Shown: positions 34,678-55,700 of the stretch, piece by piece
Layout of the letters: each line of letters starts with the position of its first letter
Position numbering within the stretch: position 1 is the stretch's first letter
IMG/VR virus record: IMGVR_UViG_3300046000_003154
Location: 1-64,000 of that record
Origin: a virus
Strand: one strand, 5' to 3'
DNA: 64,000 nucleotides
Position numbers and translations under genes: made by a program
Notes under the pieces: model-generated
The model's database searches: none
Seen by the model: the letters and a program-made list of their open reading frames with translations, nothing else
Told to the model about the DNA's origin: nothing

Positions 34678-35417
34678 AAGTTGCAATTGTCACACCAACA
34701 ATAGGAACTAAGTTTTTAAGTAAGTGTGTCGAAAGTGTTGACTCACAAACATATCAAAATTTAGTTCATTATGTTTTTATTGATGGTGCTCAATATTTAC
34801 CGCAAGTAGAAGAAACACTATTAGGAGCGTCAAAAGTTCGTACAGTGCTTCTTGAAGAGAATGTGGGTAAAGGTTGGTATGGTCATCGTGTGTATGCTGC
34901 AAGTTCGTTTTTGGTTGATGCTGACATTATATGCTACCTTGATGAAGATAATTGGCTTGACCCAACCCATGTGGAAAAAATGGTAAATAAGATAAAAGAC
35001 GGTAATGATTGGGTTTATTCGTTAAGAAAAATTTATGACAAGGATGAAAATTATCTTTGTGATGATAACTGTGAATCATTAGGAAAATGGCCTGTGTTTT
35101 TTGATAAAGATAATTATTTAATTGATACATCTTGTTTTGCTGTTAAACGTGATGTTGCTTTACAAATAGGTCATTCTTGGTATGGTCAATGGGGTGCTGA
35201 TAGACAATTCTTTAAAGCATTAAGAGAATACTTTCCAAATTATAGTTGCACTTCAGAATACTCTTTGTGTTATCGTTTAGATGGTAATCCAAATTCTGTT
35301 AAACCAGAATTTTTCGAAAAGGGTAATGAGTTTAACAGTAAAAAATATAATGGGAAATTCCCTTGGACAAAACAAAATTTACTACGGGTTGCTCCTAACA
35401 TAAATATTGTTTTATAA
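34674..35417 (+). CDS. family 2 glycosyltransferase
   Basis: VAIVTPTIGTKFLSKCVESVDSQTY ... YLDEDN (GT-A N-terminus + DxD). Confidence 0.55.
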   Translation: MKVAIVTPTIGTKFLSKCVESVDSQTYQNLVHYVFIDGAQYLPQVEETLLGASKVRTVLLEENVGKGWYGHRVYAASSFLVDADIICYLDEDNWLDPTHVEKMVNKIKDGNDWVYSLRKIYDKDENYLCDDNCESLGKWPVFFDKDNYLIDTSCFAVKRDVALQIGHSWYGQWGADRQFFKALREYFPNYSCTSEYSLCYRLDGNPNSVKPEFFEKGNEFNSKKYNGKFPWTKQNLLRVAPNINIVL

Positions 35418-35441
35418 AACATCTTATGATTGGTATAAAAC

Positions 35442-36020
35442 ATGAAAAAAAATGAAAATATTGACGCATCAGAAATGATGGTTGCTGTTGAAAGAGTTAA
35501 TTCTGGATTACTCAATAATCATATCCATTTTCTGAATGGTGATATTGATGAATATTCCGTTGGTGATGCCATTAAATGGATCATATATGAAAACACAATA
35601 GCAGAACAAGATAAAATGTTGACGTTATACATCAGTTCTTGTGGTGGCTCATTAAATGATGCGTTTGCTTTAATTGACATTATGCGCCAATCAAACTGTC
35701 CAATTAGAACAATAGGAATTGGTAGTATTATTTCTGCTGGATTTTTAATTTTTTCGTGTGGAACAAAAGGTGAACGTATTATTGCAAAGAATACTAGCAT
35801 TATGTGTCATCAATATAGTGGCGGTGCATATGGAAAACATCATGATTTACAAGCACACGTAAAAGAAATGGAATATACAAATACTAGAATGATTAACATT
35901 TTAAAAGAAGTTACTGGACTAGATGATAAAAATGTTATGTCTAAACTATTACCAGCAACCGATCAATGGTTAACACCAAAAGAAATTGTCGATTTGGGTA
36001 TTGCTGATATCATTTCATAG
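35442..36020 (+). CDS. ClpP-like (S14) serine peptidase
   Basis: GIGSIISAGF (Ser nucleophile context) and MCHQYSGG (His context) align with ClpP AASMG / IHQPLGG. Confidence 0.6.
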   Translation: MKKNENIDASEMMVAVERVNSGLLNNHIHFLNGDIDEYSVGDAIKWIIYENTIAEQDKMLTLYISSCGGSLNDAFALIDIMRQSNCPIRTIGIGSIISAGFLIFSCGTKGERIIAKNTSIMCHQYSGGAYGKHHDLQAHVKEMEYTNTRMINILKEVTGLDDKNVMSKLLPATDQWLTPKEIVDLGIADIIS

Positions 36021-36355
36021 GAGAAAAAAATGCTAGTTGGTGGGGATAAGAAAATTAGTAAACCAGAAAAAACAAAGTTTCGTAAAAATCAGGAAAATGA
36101 TTGGAACAATACGAAAAAAGAAAAACCTAAACATCATGACAAATCTTATTATAGATTAGTGAAACAAGAAGAAAGAGAAGTAGACGATGAACTATAAACA
36201 AACGATACAAAAACAAATTCAAGAACTTGAAGAAAAGATCCAAACATATTCTGGTGAAAAAATAGAATTAGTTAAACTATTAAACAATTTAAGGTTTATC
36301 GAATCCCAAGAAAACAATAATGTTTCCGATAATCGCCAACTACTAAAAGGGTAAT

Positions 36356-36664
36356 ATGCCAACATACCAATTTTATAATTCAGAAACAAAAGAACAATTT
36401 GAAGAGTTTATGTCTATTTCTATGAAAGAAGATCTTCTATCAAAGAATCCACATATCAATCAAATGCCAACAGGGTGTGCTATTGTTTCTGGTGTTGGGA
36501 GTATTGATTCTAAAACGGATAATACTTGGAAAGAGGTTCTATCAAAAGTAGCAGAAAAACATCCAGATAGTAATGTTGGAAAACGTTATGGGAAAAAATC
36601 AATTGCTCAAGTAAAAACTCAACAAATCATTCAAAAACATAGGGATAAATGGAAAAACAAATAA
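36356..36664 (+). CDS. hypothetical protein
   Basis: 102-aa ORF. Confidence 0.4.
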   Translation: MPTYQFYNSETKEQFEEFMSISMKEDLLSKNPHINQMPTGCAIVSGVGSIDSKTDNTWKEVLSKVAEKHPDSNVGKRYGKKSIAQVKTQQIIQKHRDKWKNK

Positions 36665-36743
36665 CGGTTCAATAACAATAGCGCATCTAGGAATATCTTA
36701 ATAACAAGAGGTATTCCTTTTATTTTTTTAAAAGGTATAATAA

Positions 36744-37466
36744 ATGACAAGAAGAACTCAACAATCTCAATTAGAAAATTCTACATTAGCAAAAAAAGTT
36801 AGACCAAAAATCGACAACTTTAATCTTAAAAAAATTGAAGCAAAAACAGAAGGTCAAAGGGATATGATGGAGGCTTTTGATGAAGGATTGAATGTTGTAG
36901 CTGCTGGATCTGCTGGTACTGGAAAGTCATATATCGCATCATATTTGGCATTGAAAAAACTTTTATCTAAACAAGTTGATAAAATTATAGTTGTTCGTTC
37001 AGCAGTTAATATTCGTGGTCAAGGTTTCTTACCCGGAACCCTAGAAGAAAAGGAAATGGTTTATACTATTCCTTATAAAAACATTTTTGATGATATTTGT
37101 AATTCTGGTACTGCTTGGGAGTCATTAACAAAGAAAGATATGGTACAATTCATTTCTACAACATATGTTCGTGGATTAACATTGAATAATTGTGTTGTTA
37201 TTGTTGATGAAATCCAAAACTTAGATGCTAGTGAATGTGAATCTATTCTTACTCGTTTAGGTGAAAATTGTCAAGTAATTCTTTGTGGTGATATTAGACA
37301 ATCAGATCTTTTTCGTAAGCGTGAAGTAAGTTGTTATCCTTGGTTAATTAGTTTAGCAGATAAGCTAGTTGATTATTTCGAAGTTGTTGAATTTACAAGT
37401 GATGATATTGTTCGTTCAGAATTATGTAAAGCTATTATTATGGCTATTGAAGAGATAGAGAAGTGA
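36744..37466 (+). CDS. phoH: PhoH-like ATPase
   Basis: Walker A GSAGTGKSYIA and overall PhoH-like arrangement. Confidence 0.6.
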   Translation: MTRRTQQSQLENSTLAKKVRPKIDNFNLKKIEAKTEGQRDMMEAFDEGLNVVAAGSAGTGKSYIASYLALKKLLSKQVDKIIVVRSAVNIRGQGFLPGTLEEKEMVYTIPYKNIFDDICNSGTAWESLTKKDMVQFISTTYVRGLTLNNCVVIVDEIQNLDASECESILTRLGENCQVILCGDIRQSDLFRKREVSCYPWLISLADKLVDYFEVVEFTSDDIVRSELCKAIIMAIEEIEK

Positions 37467-37505
37467 TAATAGTTATTATAATGACTACTATGGAAAATAT
37501 GTAAA

Positions 37506-38186
37506 ATGAAAAAATTTGATTATGTAAAACTTGATAAACTTCAATTTGATATGGAAGCAAAAACTGGTGTGTCTGGAAGAGTATACGAAACCCCCAATGG
37601 AGACATATACTCTTCTATTACCACAATTCTTTCACATCTTGGTAAAAAACATATAGCAGCATGGAAAGAACGTGTAGGGGAAGTGGAAGCTAATAGGATA
37701 TCTCGTTTAGCTTCTGCTCGTGGCACTAAAGTACATTCTGCTTGTGAACGATATTTGCTCAACGAAATGAGTCAAATGGAACTTCAGATGATGATGCCAG
37801 ATACAAAGCAATTATTTAAAATGCTCCAACCAGAACTTGATAAGAGTCTTAATAATATATACTCTTTGGAACAGGCATTATACTCTGATGAACTTAGGGT
37901 TGCTGGTAGAGTTGATTGTATTGCAGAGTGGGATGGAAAGTTATCAGTGATCGACTTTAAGACTTCTTCGAAAATTAAAGACGAAGAAAATATTCAAAAT
38001 TACTTTATGCAATGTACAGCTTATAGTATAATGTTTGAAGAGATTACAGGAATTCCGATTGATCAGATAGTCGTTGCAATTGCTGTAGAAGAAGATTTAC
38101 ACCCACAAATTTTCGTTCGTGAGAAAGCTAAATATCTAGAGAACACTAAGAAATTTATCAGAGGTTATCACTTGACTTGTGTTTGA
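37506..38186 (+). CDS. PD-(D/E)xK nuclease, RecB/Cas4-like
   Basis: DCIAEWDGKLSVIDFKTS (D...E.D...DxKT) and QCTAY (QxxxY) motifs. Confidence 0.5.
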   Translation: MKKFDYVKLDKLQFDMEAKTGVSGRVYETPNGDIYSSITTILSHLGKKHIAAWKERVGEVEANRISRLASARGTKVHSACERYLLNEMSQMELQMMMPDTKQLFKMLQPELDKSLNNIYSLEQALYSDELRVAGRVDCIAEWDGKLSVIDFKTSSKIKDEENIQNYFMQCTAYSIMFEEITGIPIDQIVVAIAVEEDLHPQIFVREKAKYLENTKKFIRGYHLTCV

Positions 38187-38200
38187 TTTTTTGGTATAAT
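38172..38200 (+). promoter_or_regulatory. strong sigma70-like promoter for tmRNA (TTGACT-N17-TGGTATAAT)
   Basis: TTGACT 38172-38177, extended -10 TGgTATAAT 38192-38200. Confidence 0.6.
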
Positions 38201-38206
38201 CTAAGA

Positions 38207-38549
38207 AATGGTAGTAAACTGGTTTTTAGAAAAGTTAGCAACACTCGGGTGCAATTCCCGACAGGTCCACCATAATCATTCTAATACGGAAGCACTAGGT
38301 CTAGCTAGGAAACGGTGTGAAAGTTGCACTCTCTGGGCAGTTATCGAACAGGGCAAGTTAAAGATAGCTAGAATGATTTTGATGGGCTTGACTTAGGATC
38401 GACTGATAAACTAGTACAATAATCGGCTACTTGTCAAAGAAGACATTAAAACTAAATCAAAATAAATGCAAATGACGAAAGTTACGCATTAGCAGCTTAA
38501 ACGCTACTTAGGGTTTTTGTGGGTTCCTCGTAACAGAATACCCACTTTT
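38207..38549 (+). ncRNA. ssrA: circularly permuted (two-piece) tmRNA gene
   Basis: acceptor piece: T arm tcggg-tgcaatt-cccga + 3' acceptor caggtcc + A73 + CCA (38245-38272). Coding piece starts gggcttgacttaggatcgac (38384), cf. E. coli ggggctgattctggattcgac, giving G3-U70. Tag ORF GCA AAT GAC GAA AGT TAC GCA TTA GCA GCT TAA = ANDESYALAA* (38468-38500). Terminal hairpin gtgggt...acccac + TTTT. Confidence 0.8.
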
Positions 38550-38573
38550 AATTAACAAAAAGGAAATTTATAA

Positions 38574-39014
38574 ATGAAGAAACTTATTATTGCAACTGCT
38601 CTTATTCTATCTGCTGGTTTTGCTGCTGCTTCTGATGTAGGAGTGTCAACATTACGTGACTATGCTGTAGAAAAGAATGGTGTACGTGTTGAAACATCTG
38701 TTGGAAAACTTGGAGCACTAACCCCAAAACTATCATTTACCCACGTAGACGGTTCTTATAATCGCTATGGTTTTGGGACTGATATTAATGTGTTTGAATA
38801 TAAAAACGTAACACTTTCTGCTAATGTCGGTGGTGTTTATCAGGACACTAGTTATGGTGCTAATGGATATGGTCTAGTTACTGGAGTGAAAGCTTCTGTT
38901 GATTTGACAAAATATGTGTCAGCTAATATTGGTGTTGATCGATTTACAGGGCAAAGTCGTGTAAGTTCTTTTGATGGAAACACTACAACTCTTGGTGTAG
39001 TTCTGAAGTTCTAA
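38574..39014 (+). CDS. outer-membrane beta-barrel protein (Ail/Lom/OmpX-like)
   Basis: signal peptide MKKLIIATALILSAGFAAA; alternating amphipathic strands; C-terminal LGVVLKF (terminal Phe); mature size about 127 aa. Confidence 0.55.
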   Translation: MKKLIIATALILSAGFAAASDVGVSTLRDYAVEKNGVRVETSVGKLGALTPKLSFTHVDGSYNRYGFGTDINVFEYKNVTLSANVGGVYQDTSYGANGYGLVTGVKASVDLTKYVSANIGVDRFTGQSRVSSFDGNTTTLGVVLKF

Positions 39015-39114
39015 AAAGAATTGACTTAATTTTAGGGGTGGGTTATAATGACTCACCCTTACTTATTGAACCGTACCAAATTGCTGATTTCCTAAATAAT
39101 ATTAGGAGAATAAA

Positions 39115-39753
39115 ATGTACTTGTATATAAAAACACACAATAAAACTGGATTAAAATACTTAGGAAAAACTTCATCTAAAGATCCTTTTAAATATAAAGG
39201 GTCTGGATTATATTGGAAAAGACATATAGAAAAACATGGCTATGATGTGTTCACAGAAATAATTTACGAAAGCGATGATGTAAACATAATAAAAGAACAA
39301 GGATTGATTTTTTCTAAACTTTATAATATTGTAGAAGATCCCAATTGGGCAAATCTAAAAGAAGAATCTGGTGATGGTGGGTGGGATTTTGTAAATAAAG
39401 ATGAAAATATAAGAAAAACTAGATCAAAGCGTATGTTAGGTTCTGGAAATCCTTTTTATGGCAAAACGCACACAAAAGAAACAAAAGAAAAATTAAGTGA
39501 GTACACAAAAAAACAAATTTTTCCAAAAAGAACATTAGAACATAATGAAAAAATAAAAAAATCTTTACTAGGAAAAAAACATTCAAAAGAAAGATGTGAG
39601 AATATAAGTCTTGCTAAAAAAGGAAAACCTCCACACAATAAAGGTATTCCAGATTTAAAAATAGAATGTCCTTATTGTAAAAAGATTGGTGGAAGATCTA
39701 ATATGAAAAGATGGCATTTTGAAAATTGTAAATTTAAAAAGGAAATATCATGA
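39115..39753 (+). CDS. GIY-YIG homing endonuclease with NUMOD-like repeats
   Basis: MYLYIKTHNKTGLKYLGKTS ... YKGSGLYWKRHIEKHG; repeats GSGNPFYGKTHTKETKEKLS / GKKHSKERCENISLAKKG. Confidence 0.7.
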   Translation: MYLYIKTHNKTGLKYLGKTSSKDPFKYKGSGLYWKRHIEKHGYDVFTEIIYESDDVNIIKEQGLIFSKLYNIVEDPNWANLKEESGDGGWDFVNKDENIRKTRSKRMLGSGNPFYGKTHTKETKEKLSEYTKKQIFPKRTLEHNEKIKKSLLGKKHSKERCENISLAKKGKPPHNKGIPDLKIECPYCKKIGGRSNMKRWHFENCKFKKEIS

Positions 39754-40406
39754 AAGTTTATATAGGGCCATATATTGATTTTTTAGGCCCATATCAAATA
39801 GCAGAAAAAATCTTATTCTGGTTGGATAAGCATGAAGACAAACGTGTTCATAAATTTGGGGAATGGTTAGCGGATAAAACACCACTATCAAAAATTTGCG
39901 AATGGATTCATGCCAAAAAGAAACGCAACATCAAAGTAAAAATCCACAAATATGACACATGGAGTCTTGATTCCACCATATCTATTGTGATTCTTCCAAT
40001 GTTAAAGCAATTATATTTGACAAAGCATGGTGCAGGACTTGTTGATGATAAAGACGTTCCAGAAGGTCTTGGATTGCGTTCAACGGAATGTCAAGAAAAG
40101 AAAAATGAATGGGATACAGATGATAATTTCTTCAAGCGATATGATTGGATAATGGAAGAAATGATTTGGGCTTTTGAACAAATGCAACCAGACTGTGATT
40201 GGGAAGCGCAATATCATTCTGGAAAATCTGACATAGAATGGGTTGTTACCGAATATGATGACAAAGGTGAACCAAAACTTTATAAGATGGATAGAGGCGT
40301 AAACGATACCCATAAATTTGATTCAGAGGGTTATATGAAACATTCTGATCGTATCGATAATGGTTTACGTCTTTTTGGAAAATATTTCAGAACACTCTGG
40401 GATTAA
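39750..40406 (+). CDS. hypothetical protein
   Basis: 218-aa ORF, ATGA overlap with upstream gene. Confidence 0.45.
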   Translation: MKVYIGPYIDFLGPYQIAEKILFWLDKHEDKRVHKFGEWLADKTPLSKICEWIHAKKKRNIKVKIHKYDTWSLDSTISIVILPMLKQLYLTKHGAGLVDDKDVPEGLGLRSTECQEKKNEWDTDDNFFKRYDWIMEEMIWAFEQMQPDCDWEAQYHSGKSDIEWVVTEYDDKGEPKLYKMDRGVNDTHKFDSEGYMKHSDRIDNGLRLFGKYFRTLWD

Positions 40407-40430: not shown

Positions 40431-40925
40431 ATGAAAAGGTTTTTGATAACCTTGTGTATATCTTTTACTTTTTTATTTGGGTGTACTGATTTAAATCAAT
40501 ATTCGAATAAACAAGTAACAGTAGAATACTCAAAAGAAAATGAAAAAGATATTAAATGTCTTACTGATAACATTTATTACGAATCAAAGGGAGAATCTTA
40601 CGAAGGAAATATTGCAGTAGCTTTTGTTACATTGAATCGTTTAAATCACGAAAAATTCCCAAAGGATATTTGTGGTGTCGTGAAACAAAAACGAAATGGT
40701 GTATGTCAATTTTCTTGGCATTGCACAAAAAGCTTGACAGCAAAGACAGATTTGAGGTATAATTACTTTAGAAAACTTGCAGAGTATATCTTCCATAACC
40801 ACAAAGACATAGAAGATCCAACAAATGGTGCATTGTTTTTTCATGCAACCTACGTTAATCCAAAATGGAAAAATATGGAAAAGACTGCAACAATCGGTAA
40901 ACACATTTTTTATGTAAATATTTGA
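40431..40925 (+). CDS. SleB-like cell-wall hydrolase lipoprotein
   Basis: lipobox LFGC; IAVAFVTLNRLNHEKFPKDICGVVKQ ... QFSW matches the SleB/Hydrolase_2 consensus. Confidence 0.5.
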   Translation: MKRFLITLCISFTFLFGCTDLNQYSNKQVTVEYSKENEKDIKCLTDNIYYESKGESYEGNIAVAFVTLNRLNHEKFPKDICGVVKQKRNGVCQFSWHCTKSLTAKTDLRYNYFRKLAEYIFHNHKDIEDPTNGALFFHATYVNPKWKNMEKTATIGKHIFYVNI

Positions 40926-43784: not shown

Positions 43785-43808
43785 AAAAGCCCCATTTGGG
43801 GCTTTTTC
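43785..43808. terminator. bidirectional rho-independent terminator between convergent genes
   Basis: AAAAGCCCC-attt-GGGGCTTTTT. Confidence 0.6.
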
Positions 43809-46201
43809 TATGTAAAAATTCTTTTCCATATAGAAAAATCATCATAATTTTTTTTATTATTTGATACGTTTTGTACTACCTTATTGTTATTATTAGTTGT
43901 ATTATTGATAATAATTGGAATTGATGGTTTTTGTTGTTGACGTTGTTCTGATGATATTGTATTTGATTCTATGGCAATTTGTGTACCAAAATTTGGTGTT
44001 AACGAAACTTCTGGTACAACAATCTTTTCTTCTTTAATGTCATTATTTTTATCATCTTTACCAGCAATTAAAGAAGGTTTTCCGGGATTGTTTGGATTAT
44101 CTGATACTGGTTGTGTTCCAGCTAATTGAACATGCCAATCTTCACCTTTAACTGGTCGTGTTAAACCAAATTTTTCTAACCATCCAGAAGATTTATTTTG
44201 TGTTCCAGCAAGAGTATTTAAACCATTAGCTTCTTTTGAATTAATATCAATGGCAAGACCAGAAGCATGTAAACTTCCTTTACCATTTCCTAACGGTGCT
44301 GATGGTTCTGCTACTTTTTCTTTTGTTAATTTAATGTCTGCATGATTTTCGGCTAATTTTGTGTCCCATAATTTTTTCTGTTCTTCATTTGTTCTCACAC
44401 CAGAAGTCGCAGTTAATTTTTTACCAGTTTCCTCTTTAAACGCTGAAGCCATTTTAGACACACGATCAGTTAAAGATTTCGAAATATCATTTAAATTAAC
44501 TCCAGCATTTTGTTTTGTTATTACAGTTGATAGTGATCCACCAACATTTGTAATATCACCAGATTTACCTTCTGTTTCTTTAGATGGTGGTAATGATGCT
44601 TTTGCTGTCATTATAGTAGGGGTTGTTGAATCACCACCAGATTTTATCAAAGCAACAATATCCTTTGATCGACCAGCTACTTGTTTATACCATTTAGATC
44701 CTTCAAGATTTTCAACAAGTTCTTTATTATTACCAGCAACTAATGATTTAACAAAATTGGGCCATTTTTTATACCAAGATGCTCCCATATTAAAGGTTAA
44801 ATCTATTAAAGCACCTTGAGTAGCTTTATTAGCATTTTTATAGCCGGGAATTTTCTCTGCTGCTTTTTTGTGTTCTTCAAAATCTTTAATAAACATAGCA
44901 TCAACTTCTGCCATTGTAAATTCACGATTATATTCAGGTGGTAATGATTTTCCATCCCCTATTAAGTGTCCAACACCAACCGTCCAAAGACCTAAACTAT
45001 CTTTATATGGAGTAGTGCGAACACCTTCATGTTTTTTAATCATGTCCATAATCCATTTGTCATCATTGCTTATATTTGGAATATTAGCTTCTTTTGATGG
45101 TGTTGTAGATGGAACCTTTACTTCTGGAGGTGTTCTTGTTGGAGTTTTAGAAACATAAACTTCTCCCCTAGCATCTGCTTCCTCTTTTTTCATTGTCTCT
45201 GTTTTGTTAGATAAACCTAATCTTTTTCGAATAATTTCATCATCACCAGTATATTGTTTTTCTTCTTGTTCTTTTTTAACACGCGCAGTTTCTGTTCTTT
45301 CTTTTTCTATTTCTTTGAAATATTCTTCATTTTGTATTTCTTGTCCCTTGATAGAATCAACACCACCAACAGCTTTTGTTAAACCACTTGTGTCTACATT
45401 TTGTTGTTTTTGTTTTGGTGTTTCTATGGGAACTTCTAATATCTTTTTCTTAACACCAACACCCATAAACTTTTTTAGCTCTCCAAATTTTTCTGTAAAT
45501 AAATCACCGAATCCAAAGAAATCCGCTACTGATTTCATGACTTCTTCAATAGCTTTTAAACCCCAATCAAAAAATTCTGAAACCATTTTTTTATCTATTA
45601 AACCAAAAGTAAAAAATTCAGTTATAGACCCAATACCAGCTTTTAATGCTTCCCAGATGCTTCCTGATTGTTGCCATTCTTCCCATGCTCCAGTTACACC
45701 TTCCCACAAAGATACCACTATCATTAATGGTAATGCTATTTTGCCTAATAATGATAGAATTTTTTTGGGGTTAAATATATTAATCAAACCATCAAACATT
45801 CCACTAGATTTTTTTTCTCCAATTTTACCTTTATCAATTTCTGATATCACTTTTGTGGGAGAAGTTGATGTTATTTTTTCATTTATTTTTTTAGTTGGAG
45901 AATCTGTTTCTGTTGCTGGTTTTCCACCTTTCATTATAACTAATTGAATAATATCTTCTTTGATTTTTTGAAGATCGTCAGAAAGTTTTGGAACCAACGC
46001 AGAAATATCAGAAACTTCTTTAAGATACTTTAGTGCTCCAGAAAAATCAACTTTTTCTTTAGGTTCTTCTTTCGGAGATTCATTTTGCGGTGATTCTTCG
46101 TGAGATTCAACGGGTTTAATTTCTTCTTTTTGTTCCTGAACAATAGAATTAATCTTTTGTTTAGGGTCTTGTAATACTTTTTTTCTAATTTTTTTTGCCA
46201 T
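43808..46201 (-). CDS. large transmembrane virion-associated peptidoglycan hydrolase: T4-lysozyme-like + peptidase M15 (VanY-like) domains
   Basis: MIKKHEGVRTTPYKDSLGLWTVGVGHL (T4-lysozyme/GH24-like) and GSLHASGLAIDIN (M15 SxHxxGxAxD); central TM helices; Lys/Glu/Pro-rich N-terminus. Confidence 0.6.
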   Translation of the reverse strand: MAKKIRKKVLQDPKQKINSIVQEQKEEIKPVESHEESPQNESPKEEPKEKVDFSGALKYLKEVSDISALVPKLSDDLQKIKEDIIQLVIMKGGKPATETDSPTKKINEKITSTSPTKVISEIDKGKIGEKKSSGMFDGLINIFNPKKILSLLGKIALPLMIVVSLWEGVTGAWEEWQQSGSIWEALKAGIGSITEFFTFGLIDKKMVSEFFDWGLKAIEEVMKSVADFFGFGDLFTEKFGELKKFMGVGVKKKILEVPIETPKQKQQNVDTSGLTKAVGGVDSIKGQEIQNEEYFKEIEKERTETARVKKEQEEKQYTGDDEIIRKRLGLSNKTETMKKEEADARGEVYVSKTPTRTPPEVKVPSTTPSKEANIPNISNDDKWIMDMIKKHEGVRTTPYKDSLGLWTVGVGHLIGDGKSLPPEYNREFTMAEVDAMFIKDFEEHKKAAEKIPGYKNANKATQGALIDLTFNMGASWYKKWPNFVKSLVAGNNKELVENLEGSKWYKQVAGRSKDIVALIKSGGDSTTPTIMTAKASLPPSKETEGKSGDITNVGGSLSTVITKQNAGVNLNDISKSLTDRVSKMASAFKEETGKKLTATSGVRTNEEQKKLWDTKLAENHADIKLTKEKVAEPSAPLGNGKGSLHASGLAIDINSKEANGLNTLAGTQNKSSGWLEKFGLTRPVKGEDWHVQLAGTQPVSDNPNNPGKPSLIAGKDDKNNDIKEEKIVVPEVSLTPNFGTQIAIESNTISSEQRQQQKPSIPIIINNTTNNNNKVVQNVSNNKKNYDDFSIWKRIFT

Positions 46202-46202
46202 A

Positions 46203-48620
46203 TTACATATTCTTTAATAAATCCATTAAATCTAAATCATAAACAGATGCTACATTTTTTTCTTGTCTTCCACTTGAAACAGAAGAGGAATTATTTACTG
46301 CATTATTTGTGAAACTTCCTTGATCGGCAGAAGCTTCCATTCTTTGACCTTCAGAGATATCAGACGATTCTTTTGATATCTCTGGACCAGATACACTAGT
46401 CACACTTGGTTGTAATTCTGGGGTTGCGTCATTAGAAGCAGATTCAACAGGAGAAATTGATGGAGTACCAGAAGCAGATTCAACAGGAGAAATTGATGGA
46501 GTACCAGAAGCAGATTCAACAGGAGAAATTGATGGAGTACCAGAAGCAGATTCAATGCCACTAGATGGTGCTACAGCGGTTGGAGAAGCTTCAGTTGGTG
46601 TAGTACTACCAGAATCTGATTTAGACGCTCTAGTGTCGTTTAAATCGGTCTTTGTTAACCCTTCTGCTTGAGTTGGTTTACTTTCTGTGTTTGTTTCTGG
46701 TAATGTTTTATCTTCTTTTGTTATATTTTTTGGTGTATTATCTTTTGGTTTTTCTTCTGTCTCTATCTTCTTAGGTTCAGATTCATTTTTAATTTTATTT
46801 TTTATGAATGGATCTTGTTCTAATTTTTTAACTTGTTTTGTTTTTTCTTCAATATTAGGCTTATATTTTTCGTCAATTGCCAATAGTTCTGCTGGATAGT
46901 CTTTTGATTTAGGATCATCACTAACACCTTCTGGGAATCTTTGTTTGTCGCTATCTAAAATAGATAATATTTTACCTTTCTCAGATTTATATTCTTGAAG
47001 ATTATTATTTAAATCTAATTTTGTACTCTTGTATGTTTCATACGTTTTCTCTCCTTGTTCTTTGTCTACAACCTCTTTAGAAGGTGTGACTTGTTCTGGA
47101 GATGTTGAATCTTTTTTAGATGTTGTTTCAGAAGGTTTTTCTGTGTTTATTTTATTTTCTTTTTCTATAACCTTTTCTGTATCTTTTTTATCTTCTGTTA
47201 CACGTTTGGTTTTTTCATTATCATTACGTTCATTCGTATAACTTTCAAAACTAGTCTTCATCCCTTTTGCTGTGTCTTTGAATGGATAATAAGGACCAAT
47301 AGTACCTAACTTCCAAGGACCAATGCTTATGTCTCCACCTAATGCTTTTGGAAGAGGTATTACCATTCCCGGAATAGTTGGAAGTTTTATTTCTGGTATA
47401 CCTACATTTTCACCAATCCATTCCATAATACCCATCAAGGCATTTCCAACAGTATCTATAATTGGATTAAGAAAATCTTGAACGGTTTTAAACATTTTCT
47501 TAACAGAATCTTCCCCAAATAAACCAAATGTTAAAAAATCTAAAATAGCGCCAAGACCAGCAAAAATAGCATCCTTTAAGTCGCCAGTTTCTTTCCATCG
47601 TTCAAAGCCAGCAGTAATGCCTTTAAATAAAGATATTAAAACTGTTCCAATTAAAAAAATCTTACCGAATAGTTTTAATATAGCTCCGGGATTGAATAAT
47701 GTTTTAATAGCATTAACGAATCCACCAGAAAACATTCCTATGATTGTGTCTAATATCCCACCACCAGAACTTTCTTTTTTAACATTAGTTACTGGTGTCA
47801 CTTTTTGTTCTTTTGGTTTTATTCTTGCTGTTTCAGATGCTGTTTCTACTTTATCATTTTCACTAAATGAAGCCTTTGCTATTTCTTCTGTTTTTTCTTG
47901 TTTTAATTTTTCTGCTTCTTTTTTCTTATCTTCCTCTACACCAACTAACTGATTTATATTTTGTTTAACCACATTCAAATCATCAGCTATTTTAATAAAT
48001 GAAGCGAAATTACTAGAAATAGTTTTTAACAATCCACTAAAATTATTTAAATCACCACCAGTTTCTTTATTTTCTTTAACAGCTTCTTCTTGGGTTTCTA
48101 TTTCATTTTTTCTTTGTTTTTTGATTGATCTTCCACGCATATAAGAAGAAAACAAATCATCACCAGAAAAGAAATCTCTGTACACTTTACGCCCAAGTTT
48201 TTTGATATTTTTTGGAGCATTTAATGGATTTATACTATCTTTAATTGTTTTGGCTTTAACATCAATAGCACCACCAAAAGATTCACCAATTCCACCACCA
48301 TGAGATAATCTATTTGATATATCGGAATGTAAATCTTTTGATGATGGAGCAAGTTTATGTTTTAAAGCACGAACATCAGAAAATCCTAATTCTTGAGCCA
48401 ATCTTTTAGCTAGTTCACCATCAACTGAAACTTTTCTTTTCTTTTTTGTTTCTTTTACAGGTTCTTTAGTTGACGGTTCTTCTTTGGGAATTTCTTTAGG
48501 AGACTCTTGAATAGGAGGATTCACCTGAGTTTCAACAGGTTTAATTTCTTCCTCTTTTTTTTCTTCTGGTGGTTTGTTGGCAGGGTTTAGATATCTGCCT
48601 TTATTTTTTTTAGTTGCCAT
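46203..48620 (-). CDS. paralog of the 797-aa protein (shared N-terminus and TM core), enzymatic domains not recognised
   Basis: N-terminal KKxxK...ESPKEIPKE and TM block LKLFGKIFLIGTVLISLFKGITAGFERWKETG parallel the 797-aa protein; 3 x ESASGTPSISPV. Confidence 0.5.
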   Translation of the reverse strand: MATKKNKGRYLNPANKPPEEKKEEEIKPVETQVNPPIQESPKEIPKEEPSTKEPVKETKKKRKVSVDGELAKRLAQELGFSDVRALKHKLAPSSKDLHSDISNRLSHGGGIGESFGGAIDVKAKTIKDSINPLNAPKNIKKLGRKVYRDFFSGDDLFSSYMRGRSIKKQRKNEIETQEEAVKENKETGGDLNNFSGLLKTISSNFASFIKIADDLNVVKQNINQLVGVEEDKKKEAEKLKQEKTEEIAKASFSENDKVETASETARIKPKEQKVTPVTNVKKESSGGGILDTIIGMFSGGFVNAIKTLFNPGAILKLFGKIFLIGTVLISLFKGITAGFERWKETGDLKDAIFAGLGAILDFLTFGLFGEDSVKKMFKTVQDFLNPIIDTVGNALMGIMEWIGENVGIPEIKLPTIPGMVIPLPKALGGDISIGPWKLGTIGPYYPFKDTAKGMKTSFESYTNERNDNEKTKRVTEDKKDTEKVIEKENKINTEKPSETTSKKDSTSPEQVTPSKEVVDKEQGEKTYETYKSTKLDLNNNLQEYKSEKGKILSILDSDKQRFPEGVSDDPKSKDYPAELLAIDEKYKPNIEEKTKQVKKLEQDPFIKNKIKNESEPKKIETEEKPKDNTPKNITKEDKTLPETNTESKPTQAEGLTKTDLNDTRASKSDSGSTTPTEASPTAVAPSSGIESASGTPSISPVESASGTPSISPVESASGTPSISPVESASNDATPELQPSVTSVSGPEISKESSDISEGQRMEASADQGSFTNNAVNNSSSVSSGRQEKNVASVYDLDLMDLLKNM
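46435..46556 (-). repeat. 3.4 x 36-bp perfect tandem repeat inside CDS
   Basis: agaagcagattcaacaggagaaattgatggagtacc x3 + partial copy. Confidence 0.8.
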
Positions 48621-48810
48621 CGTTATTTCTTAGATTGTTTTTGTAATCTTATGCGCTCTTTTTCTTCCCTTAAATAATTAACTAACAAAGAAACATAAAT
48701 GCTTCTTTCCCAAGGTAACATTTCTTCAAGTTCAGACAAACTATATTTGTGATGTTGCATCATCGCAAAGTTTGTCTGATAATAATTACTCAAGGTATCA
48801 TAACGAAGGA

Positions 48811-49545
48811 CTATACGAAAAAATTTTGAAGACCCTTTACTACAATGTCTTCTTCATATCCACATTTTGGACATTTAAAATGTAGAAGTTTTTTAATCTC
48901 AGGAACAGTCTCAAAGAATGTTTTGATTTTTTCTAGGTCTTTTTGTTGAAGATTATCGATAAATTCTTGGAGTTCTTCCTTAGTGTTATCTTTGGAATAG
49001 TAAATATTATCTTTATCATAGATGTAATCGATACAATCAACAAGAACTTCCAACATGACTTTTTCTTTTGTCATATTTTCATACTTTTCAACAAGTTCAA
49101 TTGTTGGGTACTTCATACAAATACCAAGATTCTCTGTGATTTTGATTTTGTTTGTGTGTGTTGGATTCTTTGTTGGTTCGATTTCCATAAGATTTAAATC
49201 AAACTCAACAACACCTTTACACTGAACTTCAATACCTTCTTCATTTGCAAGTTTGTTGTTGCATTTATATTTTAATTGTACAATTTCTTCAACAGATTTT
49301 GCACGAAGATGTAAGAAAATCCACTCCAATTCAAATGTTGGAAGATTGTCTACATCAACATCATCAAGAATACAATTTCTTAATACTTGTCTAATTGTTT
49401 TTAATGTGTCAACTTGGTCATTAGACTCAGATGCCATTAGAAATAGTTTTTGTTCTTTCACTAAGAATGGACGATATCTAATAGTTTTACCTGTAGAAAT
49501 CAACTTAATCTCATAAATCGGAACGTCTAAACGTGGAAGCTTCAT
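48811..49545 (-). CDS. hypothetical virion-module protein with C-terminal zinc ribbon
   Basis: 244-aa ORF; C-terminal FKCPKCGYEED. Confidence 0.4.
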   Translation of the reverse strand: MKLPRLDVPIYEIKLISTGKTIRYRPFLVKEQKLFLMASESNDQVDTLKTIRQVLRNCILDDVDVDNLPTFELEWIFLHLRAKSVEEIVQLKYKCNNKLANEEGIEVQCKGVVEFDLNLMEIEPTKNPTHTNKIKITENLGICMKYPTIELVEKYENMTKEKVMLEVLVDCIDYIYDKDNIYYSKDNTKEELQEFIDNLQQKDLEKIKTFFETVPEIKKLLHFKCPKCGYEEDIVVKGLQNFFV

Positions 49546-49568: not shown

Positions 49569-50312
49569 TTAACCTAATGGTAAAGTTCTAGCTGCCGCAG
49601 TACCAGCTAACATAGCAGCAGCAGCACCAGCATCATATTTACCTTTATATATTGTCCTAAAACTTTGATATGCAAATTGTACTTGTAATCTATGGAAGTC
49701 ATTAGACCCCCAATTCAAAGCTTGTGCAGCAATACCAATTGGAAATGCATCAATTAACTCAACAGCATAAATCTGTTTGATGAAATCGTCATACTGTATA
49801 ACAGTAATATTTGTCATATATCCACCGTTTATATTTGAACCATCTCCTTTTGGAAATCTTAAATTATTTGTGTCAGTAGGAGAAATGCATTCCATCCAAC
49901 GATCAAATAACTTTCTTTCTTCAAATTGATTAGTACATAAAAACGTTAAATCCATAGGTTGGTAAGCAACCCTATAAGGAACCTTAAAAGATGGTCCATA
50001 TATTCTAACGTCAGCGGTCTGAAGATCTTTACCGGGTAATGAGGCATTTTCGCATTGAAGGGCTAAATACCTTGACATTTCTGCTGTTGTTGTATTATTA
50101 TTTCCAGCACTAGCACCCAAGGCATTGTTGATAGCACCACTTATATCACTAAAGATAGAATTTGGAAGATTTAAAATAGTATTTAAAACTGAATTGGAAA
50201 TAAAACTATTAACGTAATTTGGTATTGGTAGTATAATTTCAAAACGACTTGGTTTTGCAAGCCCATCCTTTGATCTTATATTAGCTAAAAAAATATTTGG
50301 TGAGAATGACAT
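49569..50312 (-). CDS. tail-tube-family protein (gp19/gp3-like)
   Basis: ORF trimmed to internal Met (MSFSPN); RFEIILPIP ... MDLTFLCTNQFEER ... FDRWMECIS pattern resembles T4 gp19 (LFQVEISYLGQN ... DDWTVTVMNDE ... VDWQS) as recalled from memory. Confidence 0.35.
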   Translation of the reverse strand: MSFSPNIFLANIRSKDGLAKPSRFEIILPIPNYVNSFISNSVLNTILNLPNSIFSDISGAINNALGASAGNNNTTTAEMSRYLALQCENASLPGKDLQTADVRIYGPSFKVPYRVAYQPMDLTFLCTNQFEERKLFDRWMECISPTDTNNLRFPKGDGSNINGGYMTNITVIQYDDFIKQIYAVELIDAFPIGIAAQALNWGSNDFHRLQVQFAYQSFRTIYKGKYDAGAAAAMLAGTAAARTLPLG

Positions 50313-50313
50313 A

Positions 50314-50964
50314 TTAGAATTTCTTTTTAGAATCTGCCCAAACTTTAACTTGAGAATGTTTCTTAAATTGTTGGAATGGTAGAGTGCATACAATATCCCA
50401 TTCGTCAGCAGATATTGGTAAAAATTTAGATCGCACATGATTAAAAAGATAATGTTTAATACATGGGGTTGCTTCAAATAAACTTTTATAATTTTTTAAA
50501 ACAGCATATGTCATTTTTAACTTTGTTGTTTTATCATAATTTTTATTTGTTAATTTGTTAATAGAATCTATTTTATCCAATAATTCCATTCTATATTTTG
50601 GGTGTATATAATGGAGATTCAATCCCAAAAATCCGGGTTCTTTTTTTGAAGCGGATTTTGATGATGGCATAAAATCAAGAGGGATTATCAATGGGAATGT
50701 GTCATAATATGGTAAAACATCTTTTGTTTTTGGGTCATAAAAATAGAAATACATCTTTGTTTCGCCAGAAGATAATTCACGAAGAAATTCAGCAGAAGAC
50801 ATTGACAATTTTGATTGGTTGACAAATGCCTTTTTAGCTCCACCGGGCATATTAACTTCTTTAACTTTTTTTCGTAACCATTCTCTAGATGCATTTGTAC
50901 GTGCAACCATTCCCTCTTTTGCGAGTTCGTCTTTAATTCTGTCTAATAATCTTTTATTTGCCAT
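50314..50964 (-). CDS. hypothetical virion-module protein
   Basis: 216-aa ORF immediately upstream of the tail-tube-like gene. Confidence 0.4.
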   Translation of the reverse strand: MANKRLLDRIKDELAKEGMVARTNASREWLRKKVKEVNMPGGAKKAFVNQSKLSMSSAEFLRELSSGETKMYFYFYDPKTKDVLPYYDTFPLIIPLDFMPSSKSASKKEPGFLGLNLHYIHPKYRMELLDKIDSINKLTNKNYDKTTKLKMTYAVLKNYKSLFEATPCIKHYLFNHVRSKFLPISADEWDIVCTLPFQQFKKHSQVKVWADSKKKF

Positions 50965-50978: not shown

Positions 50979-51410
50979 TTATATTCCTAAGTCTTTTTCT
51001 GTAATTAAACCAAACTTCCATCCTTGCTCCAGACAAAACAATTCTGCTGCTCTCCATTTTTCCTGATTAATAGCATAGGTAGCAGCTTCTTGAATGAACT
51101 TTTTTGTTCTTTTCTGTTGGGTTGGTTTTAGAGTTTGTTTATATGGTTTGACTTCCCACATATGAGTTGACTCTTTTCCAGTTTTGTCTTTAACTCTTAA
51201 AACAAAATCTGGATAATATTTGTGTATTTTGTTATCAACTGGTGACATATAACGAACAAATAATTCTTCTGAAGACCACCAAATAACATCTTTATGATCA
51301 TCAAGCCATTTCATAACTCTAAGTTCCCAATTTGAACGATATATTATGTTAGTTGAGTCACCATTATATTTTTTAGGTGATTTTGGTGTGAACGTTCCTT
51401 TATATGACAT
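50979..51410 (-). CDS. PD-(D/E)xK-like nuclease-fold protein (possibly gp4 head-completion-like)
   Basis: YRSNWELR ... YYPDFVL ... WEVKP (PD...EVK pattern); placed divergently next to the baseplate genes as gene 4 is in T4. Confidence 0.35.
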   Translation of the reverse strand: MSYKGTFTPKSPKKYNGDSTNIIYRSNWELRVMKWLDDHKDVIWWSSEELFVRYMSPVDNKIHKYYPDFVLRVKDKTGKESTHMWEVKPYKQTLKPTQQKRTKKFIQEAATYAINQEKWRAAELFCLEQGWKFGLITEKDLGI

Positions 51411-52637: not shown

Positions 52638-53267
52638 ATGGCTAAATATTTCAATTATTATCCAAAAACTTTTTATAGTAATCCATTTACAAAAAGTAAA
52701 GCACTTGATATTGTAACAAATATAACATCAAGATTTACTTTTCAACCACAATTAAAAGAAAATGCAGTAACATTTTATGAATATTCGGTGCAAGAAGGAG
52801 ACACACCAGAAATAATTGCTCATAAATATTATGGTCATTCAGAAAAACATTGGATAATATTATTATTTAATGATATTGTTGATCCACAATTTGATTGGCC
52901 TATGTCAGAAAGTTTATTAAATAGATATGTGGATAAAAAATATCAACATCTTGGTGGATTGTCATGGGCAAAAAATGTTAATAATATTCATTCATATTAT
53001 AAAATAATTACAACAAAACTTGATTATGATGGAACAGAGTTGGTAAATAAATTAAACATAACAGCACAAGAACATTATGTGACAGGAACATCAGTAATGA
53101 CATATTTATTACATGATGGGTATGGTATAACAGAGACTATCACAACAGAAACAATATCATATTTTGAATATGAACAGCAAGAAAATGAAGCTAAAAGAGT
53201 TATTAAATTACTAAAACCAGAATTTGTTGATATGGTCGAAGAACAATTAAAAGAGGTTTTTGTATAA
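52638..53267 (+). CDS. baseplate wedge protein with LysM-like motif (gp53-like)
   Basis: ORF trimmed to ATG 52638; YSVQEGDTPEIIAHKYYG (LysM-like); position before gp27/gp5-like genes. Confidence 0.35.
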   Translation: MAKYFNYYPKTFYSNPFTKSKALDIVTNITSRFTFQPQLKENAVTFYEYSVQEGDTPEIIAHKYYGHSEKHWIILLFNDIVDPQFDWPMSESLLNRYVDKKYQHLGGLSWAKNVNNIHSYYKIITTKLDYDGTELVNKLNITAQEHYVTGTSVMTYLLHDGYGITETITTETISYFEYEQQENEAKRVIKLLKPEFVDMVEEQLKEVFV

Positions 53268-54610
53268 TGGCAGAAATTAGAGAATCGACGGATTTCCATA
53301 TCAAAAAAATGGAAATTATTAAAAAAGATGGAGACACAGTTGATATTAGAAACATATATGAAGAGTTAAACCTATTTGATTCTATTTTTTCTCCAGTATC
53401 TAGTGGTAATATTTTATTAACTGATGCTATAGGACTTTCTGAAGAATTAAAATTTGATGGATCAGAAGCTATAAAAATTGAAATTGTTAAATTTTTAGAT
53501 GATGATAGAGCATCATTTAAACAAGCATTTAGAATATATAAACAAACCGGAAGACAAAATCAAAATCAAGGAAGTGAAAAATATATTCTACATTTTGTTG
53601 CTGATGAATTATTATATTCTGACCAACAAAGAATAAATCAATCGTATGATATGACATATACCGAAATTGTCAAAAAAATAATGGAAAAATATTTAAAAAT
53701 ACCCACAAACGAACTTGATGGAATTTTTGATACTTCGATGGGAATTAGAAAATTAGTTATACCAAATTTACGTCCATTAGCAGCAATAGAATGGTGTGCA
53801 AAAAGAGCAGTTGACGATTACCAATCACCAAATTATATGTTCTTTCAAAATAAAGTTGGTTTTAATTTTGCAAGATTATCTAATTTATTGACACTAGACC
53901 ATATTTTGGATATAAATTTTAAAGTAAAAAATCTTGAAAAAGACAAACTTATTTCTGAATTATGTGGCGCTAGATATTTGGAAATAATAGATCAAAGAAA
54001 TTCTACAGAACGAACAAGATCTGGTGTAGAGGCTGGTAAATTTATTGGATTTGATCCATTAAACAGAAAAATTGATTTTAAAAATATTGGTTATTATGAC
54101 CATTATGATAAAATGAAACATGCTAATAAAACACCAAATCTTTCAGAAATACCTAATAGAGAAACAAAGAAAAACATTGAGATGTTTGACACTAAAAAGG
54201 TTGTTAGTACATTTAATACATCATTAAAAAATAGTAATTATGTTAAAAAAAATGACCCAGAATCTATATTAAAAGCAGATGACACAGAAAATTATATTTT
54301 TCAAAGAACCGCACTATTACAAAATTTAATGAGTCGTAGAATTAAATTAGTCATGCCCGGTAATTTTCAATTATCTTCTGGATTTAATGTTAAATTAAAG
54401 GCTCCAAATTTTTCAGAAAAAGAAACTGGTACAAATGATAGTAATAGTGACGAATCTATTAATGGTAAATATATCATAATAGCATCAAGACAAATTATTA
54501 AATATGATAAACATGAAACAGTTTTAGAAATAGCAACAACTTCTACTATGTCCGATAGAGTTGAACAAGGAACTATGAAACAAACTGAGGAAATTAAAAA
54601 TTATGGATAA
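53267..54610 (+). CDS. baseplate hub protein gp27-like
   Basis: FDGSEAIKIEIVKF ... FRIYKQTG resembles T4 gp27 MDGNEIIQISV ... TRIYGCKHF; directly upstream of the gp5-like gene. Confidence 0.45.
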   Translation: MAEIRESTDFHIKKMEIIKKDGDTVDIRNIYEELNLFDSIFSPVSSGNILLTDAIGLSEELKFDGSEAIKIEIVKFLDDDRASFKQAFRIYKQTGRQNQNQGSEKYILHFVADELLYSDQQRINQSYDMTYTEIVKKIMEKYLKIPTNELDGIFDTSMGIRKLVIPNLRPLAAIEWCAKRAVDDYQSPNYMFFQNKVGFNFARLSNLLTLDHILDINFKVKNLEKDKLISELCGARYLEIIDQRNSTERTRSGVEAGKFIGFDPLNRKIDFKNIGYYDHYDKMKHANKTPNLSEIPNRETKKNIEMFDTKKVVSTFNTSLKNSNYVKKNDPESILKADDTENYIFQRTALLQNLMSRRIKLVMPGNFQLSSGFNVKLKAPNFSEKETGTNDSNSDESINGKYIIIASRQIIKYDKHETVLEIATTSTMSDRVEQGTMKQTEEIKNYG

Positions 54611-55700
54611 TCAAGATAGGATTGAGTTTGCTGGTAAAAATGGATTTACTTGGTGGATGGGTATAGTTGAAGATAAACAAGACCCTTTAAAACTTGGTCG
54701 TTGTAGAGTTCGTTGTGTTGGTTGGCATTCTGATAATAAAATGGATTTACCAACCAATATGTTACCGTGGGCAATGTCATCAAATCCAGTTAATAATATA
54801 CATCCATATGCACCAAGAGAGGGTGACATGGTTTTTGGGTTTTTTACTGATGGTGAAAAGGCTCAAAATCCTATTATGCTTGGTGTTCTTCCCGGAATTC
54901 CATTAGAAGCACCTGATAGCACAAAAGCTTTTAATGATTCAAGAACACCCGAAATTTTAGCTAAAGCACCTAGATTTCCTGCAAGTAAAACCTATAATAC
55001 TGATGGTTCTGGTATTGTTATTATTGAAAAATCTACTGCTGAATTATACACGCATTCTGATAAATTAGACGAACCAACTACTCCAAGAATGGCAAGGAAT
55101 GATCCAGAAACTATTACTAAAACATTTATACAAGAACGTAAAGACAAAGTAGTTAAAGGTGTTAAGGTAGTAAACACAACTTGGGATGAACCACTAACAA
55201 AATATGACACATTATATCCGTATAATAATGTGAACGAAACTGAATCTGGGCATCATTTTGAATTGGATGATACTTTTGGAAAAGAGAGAATTCATTTAGC
55301 ACATAGAAATGGATCTTTTCAAGAATGGTATCCAAATGGTGATAAAGTCGAAAAAATTACCAGAGACAACTTTCAAATTGTTATGAAAGATGATCACATT
55401 TATATTATGGGTAAATGTTTCATAACAGTACAAAAAGATGCAGAAATACATGTACAAAAAGATGCGTATATAAATGTGGATGGTGATGTTAAAGTTGGTG
55501 TTGGTGGAAATTATTATGAACATGTTGCTGGTTCATATACAGTAATTTCTGATGGTGATATGAAAATTAACGGCAGAACCATTAATTTAAATAATGGTAT
55601 AAATGGTGCGGTTAGAATTGGTGATCATGATGACGATAGTGAATCAAATGGTCCAGATAAAATGGTTGAAGGTTCTCACACAGTCTTTATTGGGGATTAA
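54603..55700 (+). CDS. baseplate central spike gp5-like (OB domain + beta-helix, no lysozyme domain)
   Basis: N-terminal TWWMGIVEDKQDPLKLGRCRVRCVGWH (gp5 OB-fold motif); C-terminal repeats HVQKDAYINVDGDVKVGVGGNYYEHVAGSYTVISDGDMKING. Confidence 0.55.
   Translation: MDNQDRIEFAGKNGFTWWMGIVEDKQDPLKLGRCRVRCVGWHSDNKMDLPTNMLPWAMSSNPVNNIHPYAPREGDMVFGFFTDGEKAQNPIMLGVLPGIPLEAPDSTKAFNDSRTPEILAKAPRFPASKTYNTDGSGIVIIEKSTAELYTHSDKLDEPTTPRMARNDPETITKTFIQERKDKVVKGVKVVNTTWDEPLTKYDTLYPYNNVNETESGHHFELDDTFGKERIHLAHRNGSFQEWYPNGDKVEKITRDNFQIVMKDDHIYIMGKCFITVQKDAEIHVQKDAYINVDGDVKVGVGGNYYEHVAGSYTVISDGDMKINGRTINLNNGINGAVRIGDHDDDSESNGPDKMVEGSHTVFIGD

Follow-up and report, generated by a model that had tools for sequence, protein, structure and literature searches.

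Candidate tape-measure proteins as a tandem paralogous pair, one bearing lysozyme and peptidase domains, in the baseplate hub cluster of a marine T4-like phage

How does a T4-like phage breach the cell wall of its host if its central spike has no lysozyme domain? The question is raised by a 64,000-nucleotide (nt) stretch of DNA (positions 1 to 64,000 of IMG/VR record IMGVR_UViG_3300046000_003154; hereafter, the window), which comes from an uncultured marine T4-like phage. As an earlier note on this DNA had described, its gp5-like spike has an OB domain and a beta-helix and no lysozyme: neither Pfam nor PHROG searches returned a lysozyme match in it (no PF00959), and only about 107 amino acids (aa) lie between the two domains. 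The gp5 proteins of the related loci L002 and L003, of cyanophages S-SSM5 and S-CREM2 and of phage HTVC008M likewise have no lysozyme domain. A lysozyme domain is found instead in one of two adjacent minus-strand open reading frames (ORFs) of the hub cluster, ORF A (797 aa) and ORF B (805 aa). The explanation that we favor, with moderate confidence, is that A and B are paralogous tape-measure-like proteins in the lumen of the tail tube, and that A would bring the wall-degrading enzymes with it.

That A and B, which are separated by 1 nt, are paralogs had been claimed before and is borne out at two levels: BLASTP aligns residues 19-230 of A with residues 165-392 of B at 32% identity (E = 6e-21), and profiles of the A and B families match over the N-terminal motif and the hydrophobic block with an hhalign probability of 99.9% (E = 4e-33). 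The same profile match, together with hydrophobic segments in each protein (by Kyte-Doolittle, one strong segment in A, at about 148-170, and two strong ones in B, at about 307-340 and 348-370, plus a weak one), supports the conserved block of transmembrane-like helices that the earlier note had ascribed to both. To these can be added a C-terminal module of about 50 aa, absent from that description, which also joins the two proteins (hhalign probability 95.9%, E = 6e-9; score 47.5, where the best of 30 column shuffles reached 14.6). Because hhalign matches both the N-terminal scaffold and the C-terminal module, A and B share their two ends and differ in the middle. AlphaFold models place long helices in the N-terminal halves of both proteins at low pLDDT (predicted local distance difference test), and confident enzyme folds appear only in A. 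The Pro/Glu/Lys-rich N-terminus that was said to be shared is real but short, amounting to KEEIKPVE(S/T) and, in the DNA, to a 34-nt patch of 85% identity between the 5' leaders of the two genes (46101-46134 vs. 48526-48559). Most B-family members lack this leader, which suggests that the two paralogs exchanged sequence locally in the lineage of the window phage.

The middle of A contains two putative enzymes. In Pfam searches, Phage_lysozyme (PF00959) matches residues 389-510 with 55.4 bits (cut-off, 22.3) and VanY (PF02557) matches residues 573-677 with 36.1 bits (cut-off, 25), such that the T4-lysozyme-like and M15 assignments, which the earlier note had tied to the outcome of domain searches, both stand above threshold. 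Residues E392, D401 and T407 align with the catalytic E11, D20 and T26 of T4 lysozyme, and the AlphaFold model of this domain (pLDDT above 90; about 85-95 over the enzyme domains as a whole) resembles T4 lysozyme with a Foldseek TM score of 0.70-0.75; its profile, its predicted fold and its Glu/Asp/Thr residues all place the domain in family GH24. The second domain has the motifs SGVR(600), H645-x6-D652 and WH690. In an alignment to YodJ/VanY structures, SGVR600 falls on SGYR, and H645 and D652 fall on SEHxxGxAxD; H690 (in EDWH) was recognized as the third zinc ligand solely by eye. With a profile score above the gathering value and these predicted ligands, the domain belongs to the M15B/VanY type. 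A further match to this M15 region is PHROG 16823 (‘tail length tape measure protein’).

The lysozyme of A has the same fold and catalytic type as that of T4 gp5 and is about 28% identical (tblastn) to the corresponding domain in the gp5 of hundreds of T-even phages, but its carrier is a tape-measure-like protein and not an OB/beta-helix spike. The earlier note supposed that wall digestion had moved away from gp5. This holds insofar as the predicted activity belongs to another protein, which is large and has hydrophobic segments; the direction of evolution is not established.

A protein with two wall-degrading domains could also be read as the phage endolysin, membrane-anchored and acting late in infection, with B as an unrelated membrane protein (e.g., a holin or spanin partner). 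Both domains of A appear catalytically intact, its best PHROG match is ‘endolysin’, and the database names of A-like genes (‘endolysin’, ‘lysozyme murein’, ‘GH24 lysozyme’) agree. However, A does not resemble a canonical endolysin, in that only about 280 of its 797 aa are enzymatic, its gene is located in the hub operon, and it has scaffold ends in common with B. Moreover, the enzymes are dispensable or replaceable among orthologs of A, the cyanophage equivalents are abundant virion proteins, and the window encodes a separate SleB-like hydrolase. This hydrolase, which both L002 and L003 have in the corresponding place, is probably the lysis enzyme of this phage group, and A is therefore not needed as an endolysin. 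We consider the lysis explanation very improbable.

The same gene pair recurs well beyond the window. Searches of large databases found 443 proteins related to A and 117 related to B, and a scan of IMG/VR with the B profile left 80 loci, 47 of which have at least two complete paralogs. The order gp26, (gp51), B-type, A-type occurs in all 47, with gp32 on the opposite strand after the A-type gene wherever the contig extends that far, and the gene order of the window pair is repeated in L002 and L003. The first paralog is a B-type without a lysozyme or VanY domain in every locus (47/47), and the last is an A-type in 46. The cassette carried by the A-type proteins is variable: lysozyme plus VanY in 5 loci, lysozyme in 7, VanY in 9 and neither in 26. 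When ten of those with neither were scanned with Pfam, four proved to have GH19, one had GH19 plus M23, and five had nothing recognizable; among A-type database matches, M23 also occurs in place of VanY. B-type proteins, mostly 590-650 aa in length, have a constant layout: the N-terminal region is conserved and is followed by an IAKN..MARDxNVLRQN motif, the strongly conserved hydrophobic block and an IGPYYPFK motif, after which a variable middle leads to a C-terminus that is again conserved.

Because B-types are free of lysozyme and VanY domains in all 47 loci and the A-type cassette varies, the conserved function of both proteins lies in the scaffold and not in the enzymes, which, as judged from these sequences, are an exchangeable accessory to a conserved core. 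The proposal that the second paralog had lost or replaced its enzymes is not supported, since B-types form a conserved orthologue group of their own. Nor is the arrangement confined to the window phage: it is the norm across a large clade of marine T4-like phages, to which cultured cyanophages also belong. A variant occurs in L029 (IMG/VR 3300027971_000116, 6052-11865), where three tandem paralogs, not two, lie between gp26 and gp32 (623 aa; 679 aa with GH19; and 632 aa with VanY).

The position of the pair recalls that of the T4 tape measure. T4 has the run 26-51-27-28-29, of which gp29 is the tape measure, and the run of gp26, the gp51-like gene, B and A mirrors it; as in the gp29 family, the pair is situated in the hub cluster, beside and co-oriented with gp26 and gp51. 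B-type proteins and gp29 (590 aa) are of similar size, both are hydrophobic in their central region, and one motif is weakly matched in colinear position (WEAGDWGGLTVAIVEGLG against WKETGDLKDAIFAGLG). T4 differs in that it has a single gene without an enzyme and its lysozyme is on gp5, whereas the window has two paralogs with the lysozyme on one of them. Of the features expected of tape measures, helical structure (here taken from low-pLDDT models) and hydrophobic or transmembrane-like segments are present in A and B, and tandem repeats of the kind that drives length variation are present in the variable region of B, of relatives and of the S-CREM2 proteins.

Homology to gp29 was non-significant by BLASTP, by PF25671 (T4_Tape_measure) and by hhalign, whether with a single sequence, an 18-member profile or C-terminus-only profiles. 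Neither A nor B matches PF25671 at E <= 0.01, nor does any of 24 B-family members at E <= 10; T4 gp29 itself scores 1388 bits. A C-terminal pattern that the eye picks out in proteins of the window, the cyanophages and T4 alike (…AQ…P-[IV][IV]V…) scores barely above column shuffles and was not counted. In HTVC008M the place of the window pair after gp51 is taken by one large protein of 687 aa, in which Pfam recognizes no domain, and by a 110-aa ORF (L010, 6945-9354). RefSeq names the large protein ‘putative tail tape measure’; no homology between it and the window pair was detected. No wall hydrolase is recognizable on either the gp5 or the 687-aa protein of this phage. The tape measure of pelagimyophages and cyanomyophages could not be identified in previous work (PMC7029224).

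Cyanophages have an equivalent pair. In S-SSM5, S-H34, S-B68 and S-CREM2 the layout is gp26, gp51, two large ORFs, gp27-like and a gp5 without lysozyme, and the two large ORFs (S-SSM5_014/015, S-H34 gp197/196, S-CREM2 gp208/209) are labelled ‘endolysin’, ‘chitinase’, ‘lysozyme murein’ or ‘TolA’. They bear GH24, GH19 or M15 domains and are mutually paralogous over their N-terminal 200 aa or so (BLASTP E of 2e-4 to 3e-9; profiles, E = 6e-30). Beyond the lysozyme domain they are too divergent from the window proteins for BLAST; profiles of 41 sequences align the scaffolds with hhalign at E = 4e-5 (probability 71%) and E = 1e-4 (probability 53%), above all column shuffles, and a remote homology of the two pairs is, by these profiles, probable but not proven. 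The pairs differ in that their C-terminal modules are not demonstrably alike and in that cluster C cyanophages have enzymes on both members, whereas the B-type never has them.

Evidence that such proteins are part of the virion comes from S-CREM2, whose tail of about 418 nm is the longest among isolated cyanomyoviruses (PMC10665884). Both of its proteins were detected by mass spectrometry in CsCl-purified virions (73 and 71 peptides) and were read by the authors as endolysins, possibly capsid-packaged (PMC10665884); a second virion-proteome paper (PMC12801897) contains nothing on these genes. The proteins are also about double the length of those in a shorter-tailed relative, largely by virtue of repeats: 1565 and 1456 aa in S-CREM2 vs. 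936 and 735 aa in S-H34, which has a tail of 129 nm, and the adjoining gp27-like genes are nearly equal in the two phages (426 and 419 aa). Longer proteins thus accompany a longer tail while neighboring genes are unchanged, a comparison that involves two cyanophages and not the window phage.

T7 gp16-type proteins also join a muralytic domain to membrane-active segments, which counts in favor of another explanation, namely, that A and B are stored in the capsid as internal ejection proteins of the T7 gp14/15/16 kind, which on infection would travel through the tail, digest the wall and bridge the envelope. Mass spectrometry of S-CREM2 virions, being silent on location (PMC10665884), accommodates this possibility, and PHROG 2083 (‘internal virion lysozyme motif’) matches A, although only over the lysozyme domain. 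If the proteins were packaged in the head, their genes would be less at home where they are, within the hub operon between gp51 and gp27/gp32 and not among head genes, and the lengths of the cyanophage equivalents would not be expected to follow tail length as they do in S-CREM2 and S-H34. In addition, contractile tails of the T4 type depend on a tape measure, for which the clade has no other known candidate (PMC7029224). Storage in the capsid therefore strikes us as quite improbable.

B has a variable middle region; neither Pfam nor PHROG gives a match anywhere in the protein, and its AlphaFold model has a pLDDT of 50 and a C-terminal half predicted to be disordered. The perfect repeat that had been reported in the second paralog is there as described, and relatives of B also have tandem repeats in the variable region, with periods of 18-36 nt. 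The repeat of B is best read as recent slippage in a length-variable linker, and this linker is the same type of sequence as that massively expanded in long-tailed relatives. A comparison of copy number among near-identical relatives finds none to compare, the best relative of B being 44% identical and megablast against GenBank phages returning nothing. In S-CREM2, residues 770-1250 or so of gp209 (L005, 12185-16555) consist of dozens of 13-aa tandem units, FQQSMGSVAPAGG or FQQTNGSVAPVDN (Tandem Repeats Finder periods of 39, 78 and 117 nt), which make up most of the extra sequence of this protein, and S/T/N-rich repeats of about 14 aa at residues 540-720 or so of gp208 (L005, 7484-12181) form the first 180 aa, approximately, of its extra sequence. 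Repeat tracts and extra segments account for much of the doubling in length of the S-CREM2 proteins. The rest of the extra sequence of gp208 includes further domains, among them a CHAP/NlpC-like segment at about 1080-1180, recognized by eye only.

If both proteins acted as rulers of the same tube, their lengths might be expected to vary together. Among 45 distinct pairs, the lengths of the two paralogs are correlated (Spearman 0.57), and 8 of the 45 pairs, among which the window pair (805/797 aa) is listed, are within 5 aa of each other, against 1.9 expected (permutation p = 3e-4). Four cyanophage-type loci, L099, L103, L106 and L136, are nearly length-matched, at 922/918, 918/919, 918/918 and at least 1329/1340 aa.

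A possible alternative is that B only is the true tape measure and that A is a tail-associated lysin, a passenger that uses the same docking modules, replaces the gp5 lysozyme and does not set length. B-type proteins (about 590-650 aa) are indeed close in size to the 590 aa of gp29 and are without lysozyme and VanY domains throughout, the middle of A-types serves as a cassette for enzymes, and HTVC008M manages with one large protein. Against this alternative, both S-CREM2 proteins are longer, by about 630-720 aa; the paralogs often match in length to within a few residues; and about half of the sampled A-types have no recognizable enzyme, the gene being kept nonetheless. We regard the single-ruler alternative as doubtful, if the least implausible of those considered here.

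A more specific proposal is that marine T4-like phages (Kyanoviridae broadly) have a hetero-oligomeric ruler made of the two paralogs, in which extended Gly/Pro/Ser-rich repeats of 12-13 aa (ESASGTPSISPV in the window and FQQSMGSVAPAGG in S-CREM2) set the length of the tail. Because each unit would span about one ring of the tail tube (about 4 nm), copy number would change tail length in ring steps, with the enzymes travelling unfolded. A universal repeat unit was not found, and because the periods in relatives vary between 18 and 36 nt, the idea of a ring-sized unit is still speculative; as a whole we deem this proposal unlikely.

Returning to the reading of A and B as tape-measure-like proteins of the tube lumen, infection could proceed as follows. 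Because their ends match, both proteins would share their docking partners: the C-terminus would be anchored in the gp27-like/gp5 hub, the N-terminus would lie at the tube's upper end, and the two proteins might form one mixed oligomer. The tail tube would polymerize around them as its ruler or rulers. Contraction of the sheath would drive the lysozyme-less spike through the outer membrane, after which A and B would be expelled; A would make a local breach in the wall, its muramidase cutting the glycan and its M15 peptidase the stem peptides. Hydrophobic helices of A and B might then enter the inner membrane and form or prime a conduit for DNA.

The siphophage T5 provides one precedent, its tape measure Pb2 having a muralytic domain. 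Tape measures of this kind, such as those of mycobacteriophage TM4 and phiCbK (gp95, with a CHAP domain), are an accepted class, and their expulsion to open the wall is the accepted model (PMC1796659; PMC3556154). Like A, they are long, mostly helical lumen proteins with hydrophobic segments and an embedded peptidoglycan hydrolase thought to be active after ejection (PMC1796659; PMC3556154). They differ in being single-copy proteins of non-contractile tails, whereas the window has tandem paralogs in a T4-type contractile tail, two enzymes in one protein and, among close relatives, frequent swaps of the cassette; what would be new is the arrangement, not the class. phiCbK was also considered as a precedent for two tape measure proteins and set aside, as the paper refers to two tape measure chaperones.

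Several observations weigh against this reading. Three folded enzyme domains of 16-18 kDa side by side would exceed a lumen of about 4 nm, and because the lumen is too narrow, the domains would have to be unfolded or staggered. The covariation in length is confounded by shared ancestry, the loci not being phylogenetically independent, and the correlation vanishes once enzyme domains are subtracted, for which reason it is not a clean ruler signal; among cyanophage-type pairs the Spearman coefficient is about 0, with co-expansion in giant outliers only. Length does not scale linearly at 1.5 Å per residue, at which S-CREM2 would need about 2800 aa. The hhalign comparisons with gp29 (E of about 0.01-0.02, probability 2-5%) are within the range of shuffles, and because HTVC008M has a single large protein at this position, the pair is not obligatory. 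Finally, the link to cyanophages outside the enzymatic domains is probable rather than certain (hhalign probabilities of 53-71%), and the virion evidence, which bears on the window phage by analogy, belongs to S-CREM2 and not to this phage or its close relatives. The suggestion in the earlier note of an ejected, tape-measure-like protein is accordingly retained in part: genomic position, architecture, and the virion presence and length of the cyanophage proteins agree with it, and membership in the gp29 family was not found.

Few viruses in the ocean are as abundant as the T4-like myoviruses that infect cyanobacteria, SAR11 and OM43. Should A and B be tape measures, a systematic misannotation (as ‘endolysin’, ‘chitinase’, ‘TolA’ or ‘hypothetical’) would be corrected, and it would be explained how phages with a lysozyme-less gp5 spike breach the wall. 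The fast-swapping cassette (GH24, GH19, M15, M23) would then be a likely determinant of host range or of adaptation to the cell wall, and cyanophages with short tails and with tails of 418 nm would offer a tractable system for the control of tail length by two rulers.

Table 1. Positions in the window of the paralogous pair, its domains and associated genes.
Feature	Position	Strand	Description
ORF A	43808-46201	minus	797 aa; tape-measure-like scaffold with GH24 lysozyme and M15 (VanY) peptidase
A, residues 54-90	45932-46042	minus	N-terminal helical motif; degenerate copy of the family's IAKN..ARDxNV.RQN
A, residues 134-245	45467-45802	minus	hydrophobic/amphipathic helical block common with B; strong transmembrane-like segment at about 148-170
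A, residues 384-524	44630-45052	minus	T4-lysozyme-type (GH24) domain
A, residues 565-697	44111-44509	minus	M15B/VanY-type zinc peptidase domain
A, residues 732-782	43856-44008	minus	C-terminal module common with B: S..IS.EQRQQQKP..PIIINN.TNN
ORF B	46203-48620	minus	805 aa; tape-measure-like paralog, no recognizable enzymatic domain
B, residues 192-225	47946-48047	minus	N-terminal motif common with A family
B, residues 286-407	47400-47765	minus	hydrophobic helical block GGILDTI...KIFLIGTVLISLF...AGLGAILDFLTFGLFGE; best-conserved part of the family
B, residues 450-735	46416-47273	minus	variable, charged/low-complexity middle, mostly predicted disordered; far longer than in most relatives, whose full length is typically 590-680 aa
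Tandem repeat	46434-46555	minus	period 36 bp, 3.4 copies, 100% match; encodes ESASGTPSISPV; within variable region of B
B, residues 738-788	46257-46409	minus	C-terminal module common with A: SG.EISKESSDISEGQRME..AD.G...NN
gp51-position ORF (hub assembly catalyst)	48623-48793	minus	56 aa; no Pfam match; equivalent in relatives matches Gp51_C
gp26-type baseplate hub protein	48811-49545	minus	PF12322, E=3e-59; first gene upstream of the pair
gp27-like hub/‘tail protein’	53267-54610	plus	PHROG 350, E=1e-59; gp27 identity from position beside gp5
gp5-like central spike	54603-55700	plus	365 aa; Gp5_OB 46-113, beta-helix 221-312 (weaker Gp5_trimer_C match); PHROG 430, E=4e-72
SleB-like cell-wall hydrolase	40431-40925	plus	164 aa; PF07486 Hydrolase_2, E=4e-25

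The surroundings of the pair (Table 1) are those of a T4-type tail and baseplate cluster. The minus-strand run comprises a TnsA-like gene in the gp4 position, gp2, a gp54-like tube protein, gp26, the gp51-position ORF, B and A; at its A end the run faces gp32, and at the other it diverges from gp48, gp53, the gp27-like gene, gp5, gp25 and gp6. The nearest cultured relatives, OM43 phage Melnitz and the pelagimyophages HTVC008M and Mosig, are 36-38% identical to the window phage in gp6, and the G+C content of the window is 33%. The T4-type late promoter TATAAATA has 5 matches in the window against 10.6 expected, none of them near the pair. Within the run, a 302-aa tube-like ORF with a TTG start (49569-50477, minus) overlaps the gp2-like ORF (50314-50964, minus) by 164 nt; because the tube-like gene of relatives encodes 249 aa, its true start is probably an internal ATG. 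The adjoining 143-aa TnsA-like/endonuclease-I-like protein (50979-51410, minus; PF08722, E = 7e-20) occupies the position labelled ‘head completion nuclease / gp4’ in cyanophage records. Upstream of the replication and hub modules, an auxiliary run (34674-40406, plus) encodes a GT2 glycosyltransferase, a ClpP-like protease, PhoH and a PD-(D/E)XK nuclease, and it also includes a NUMOD3 homing-endonuclease-like ORF at 39115-39753.

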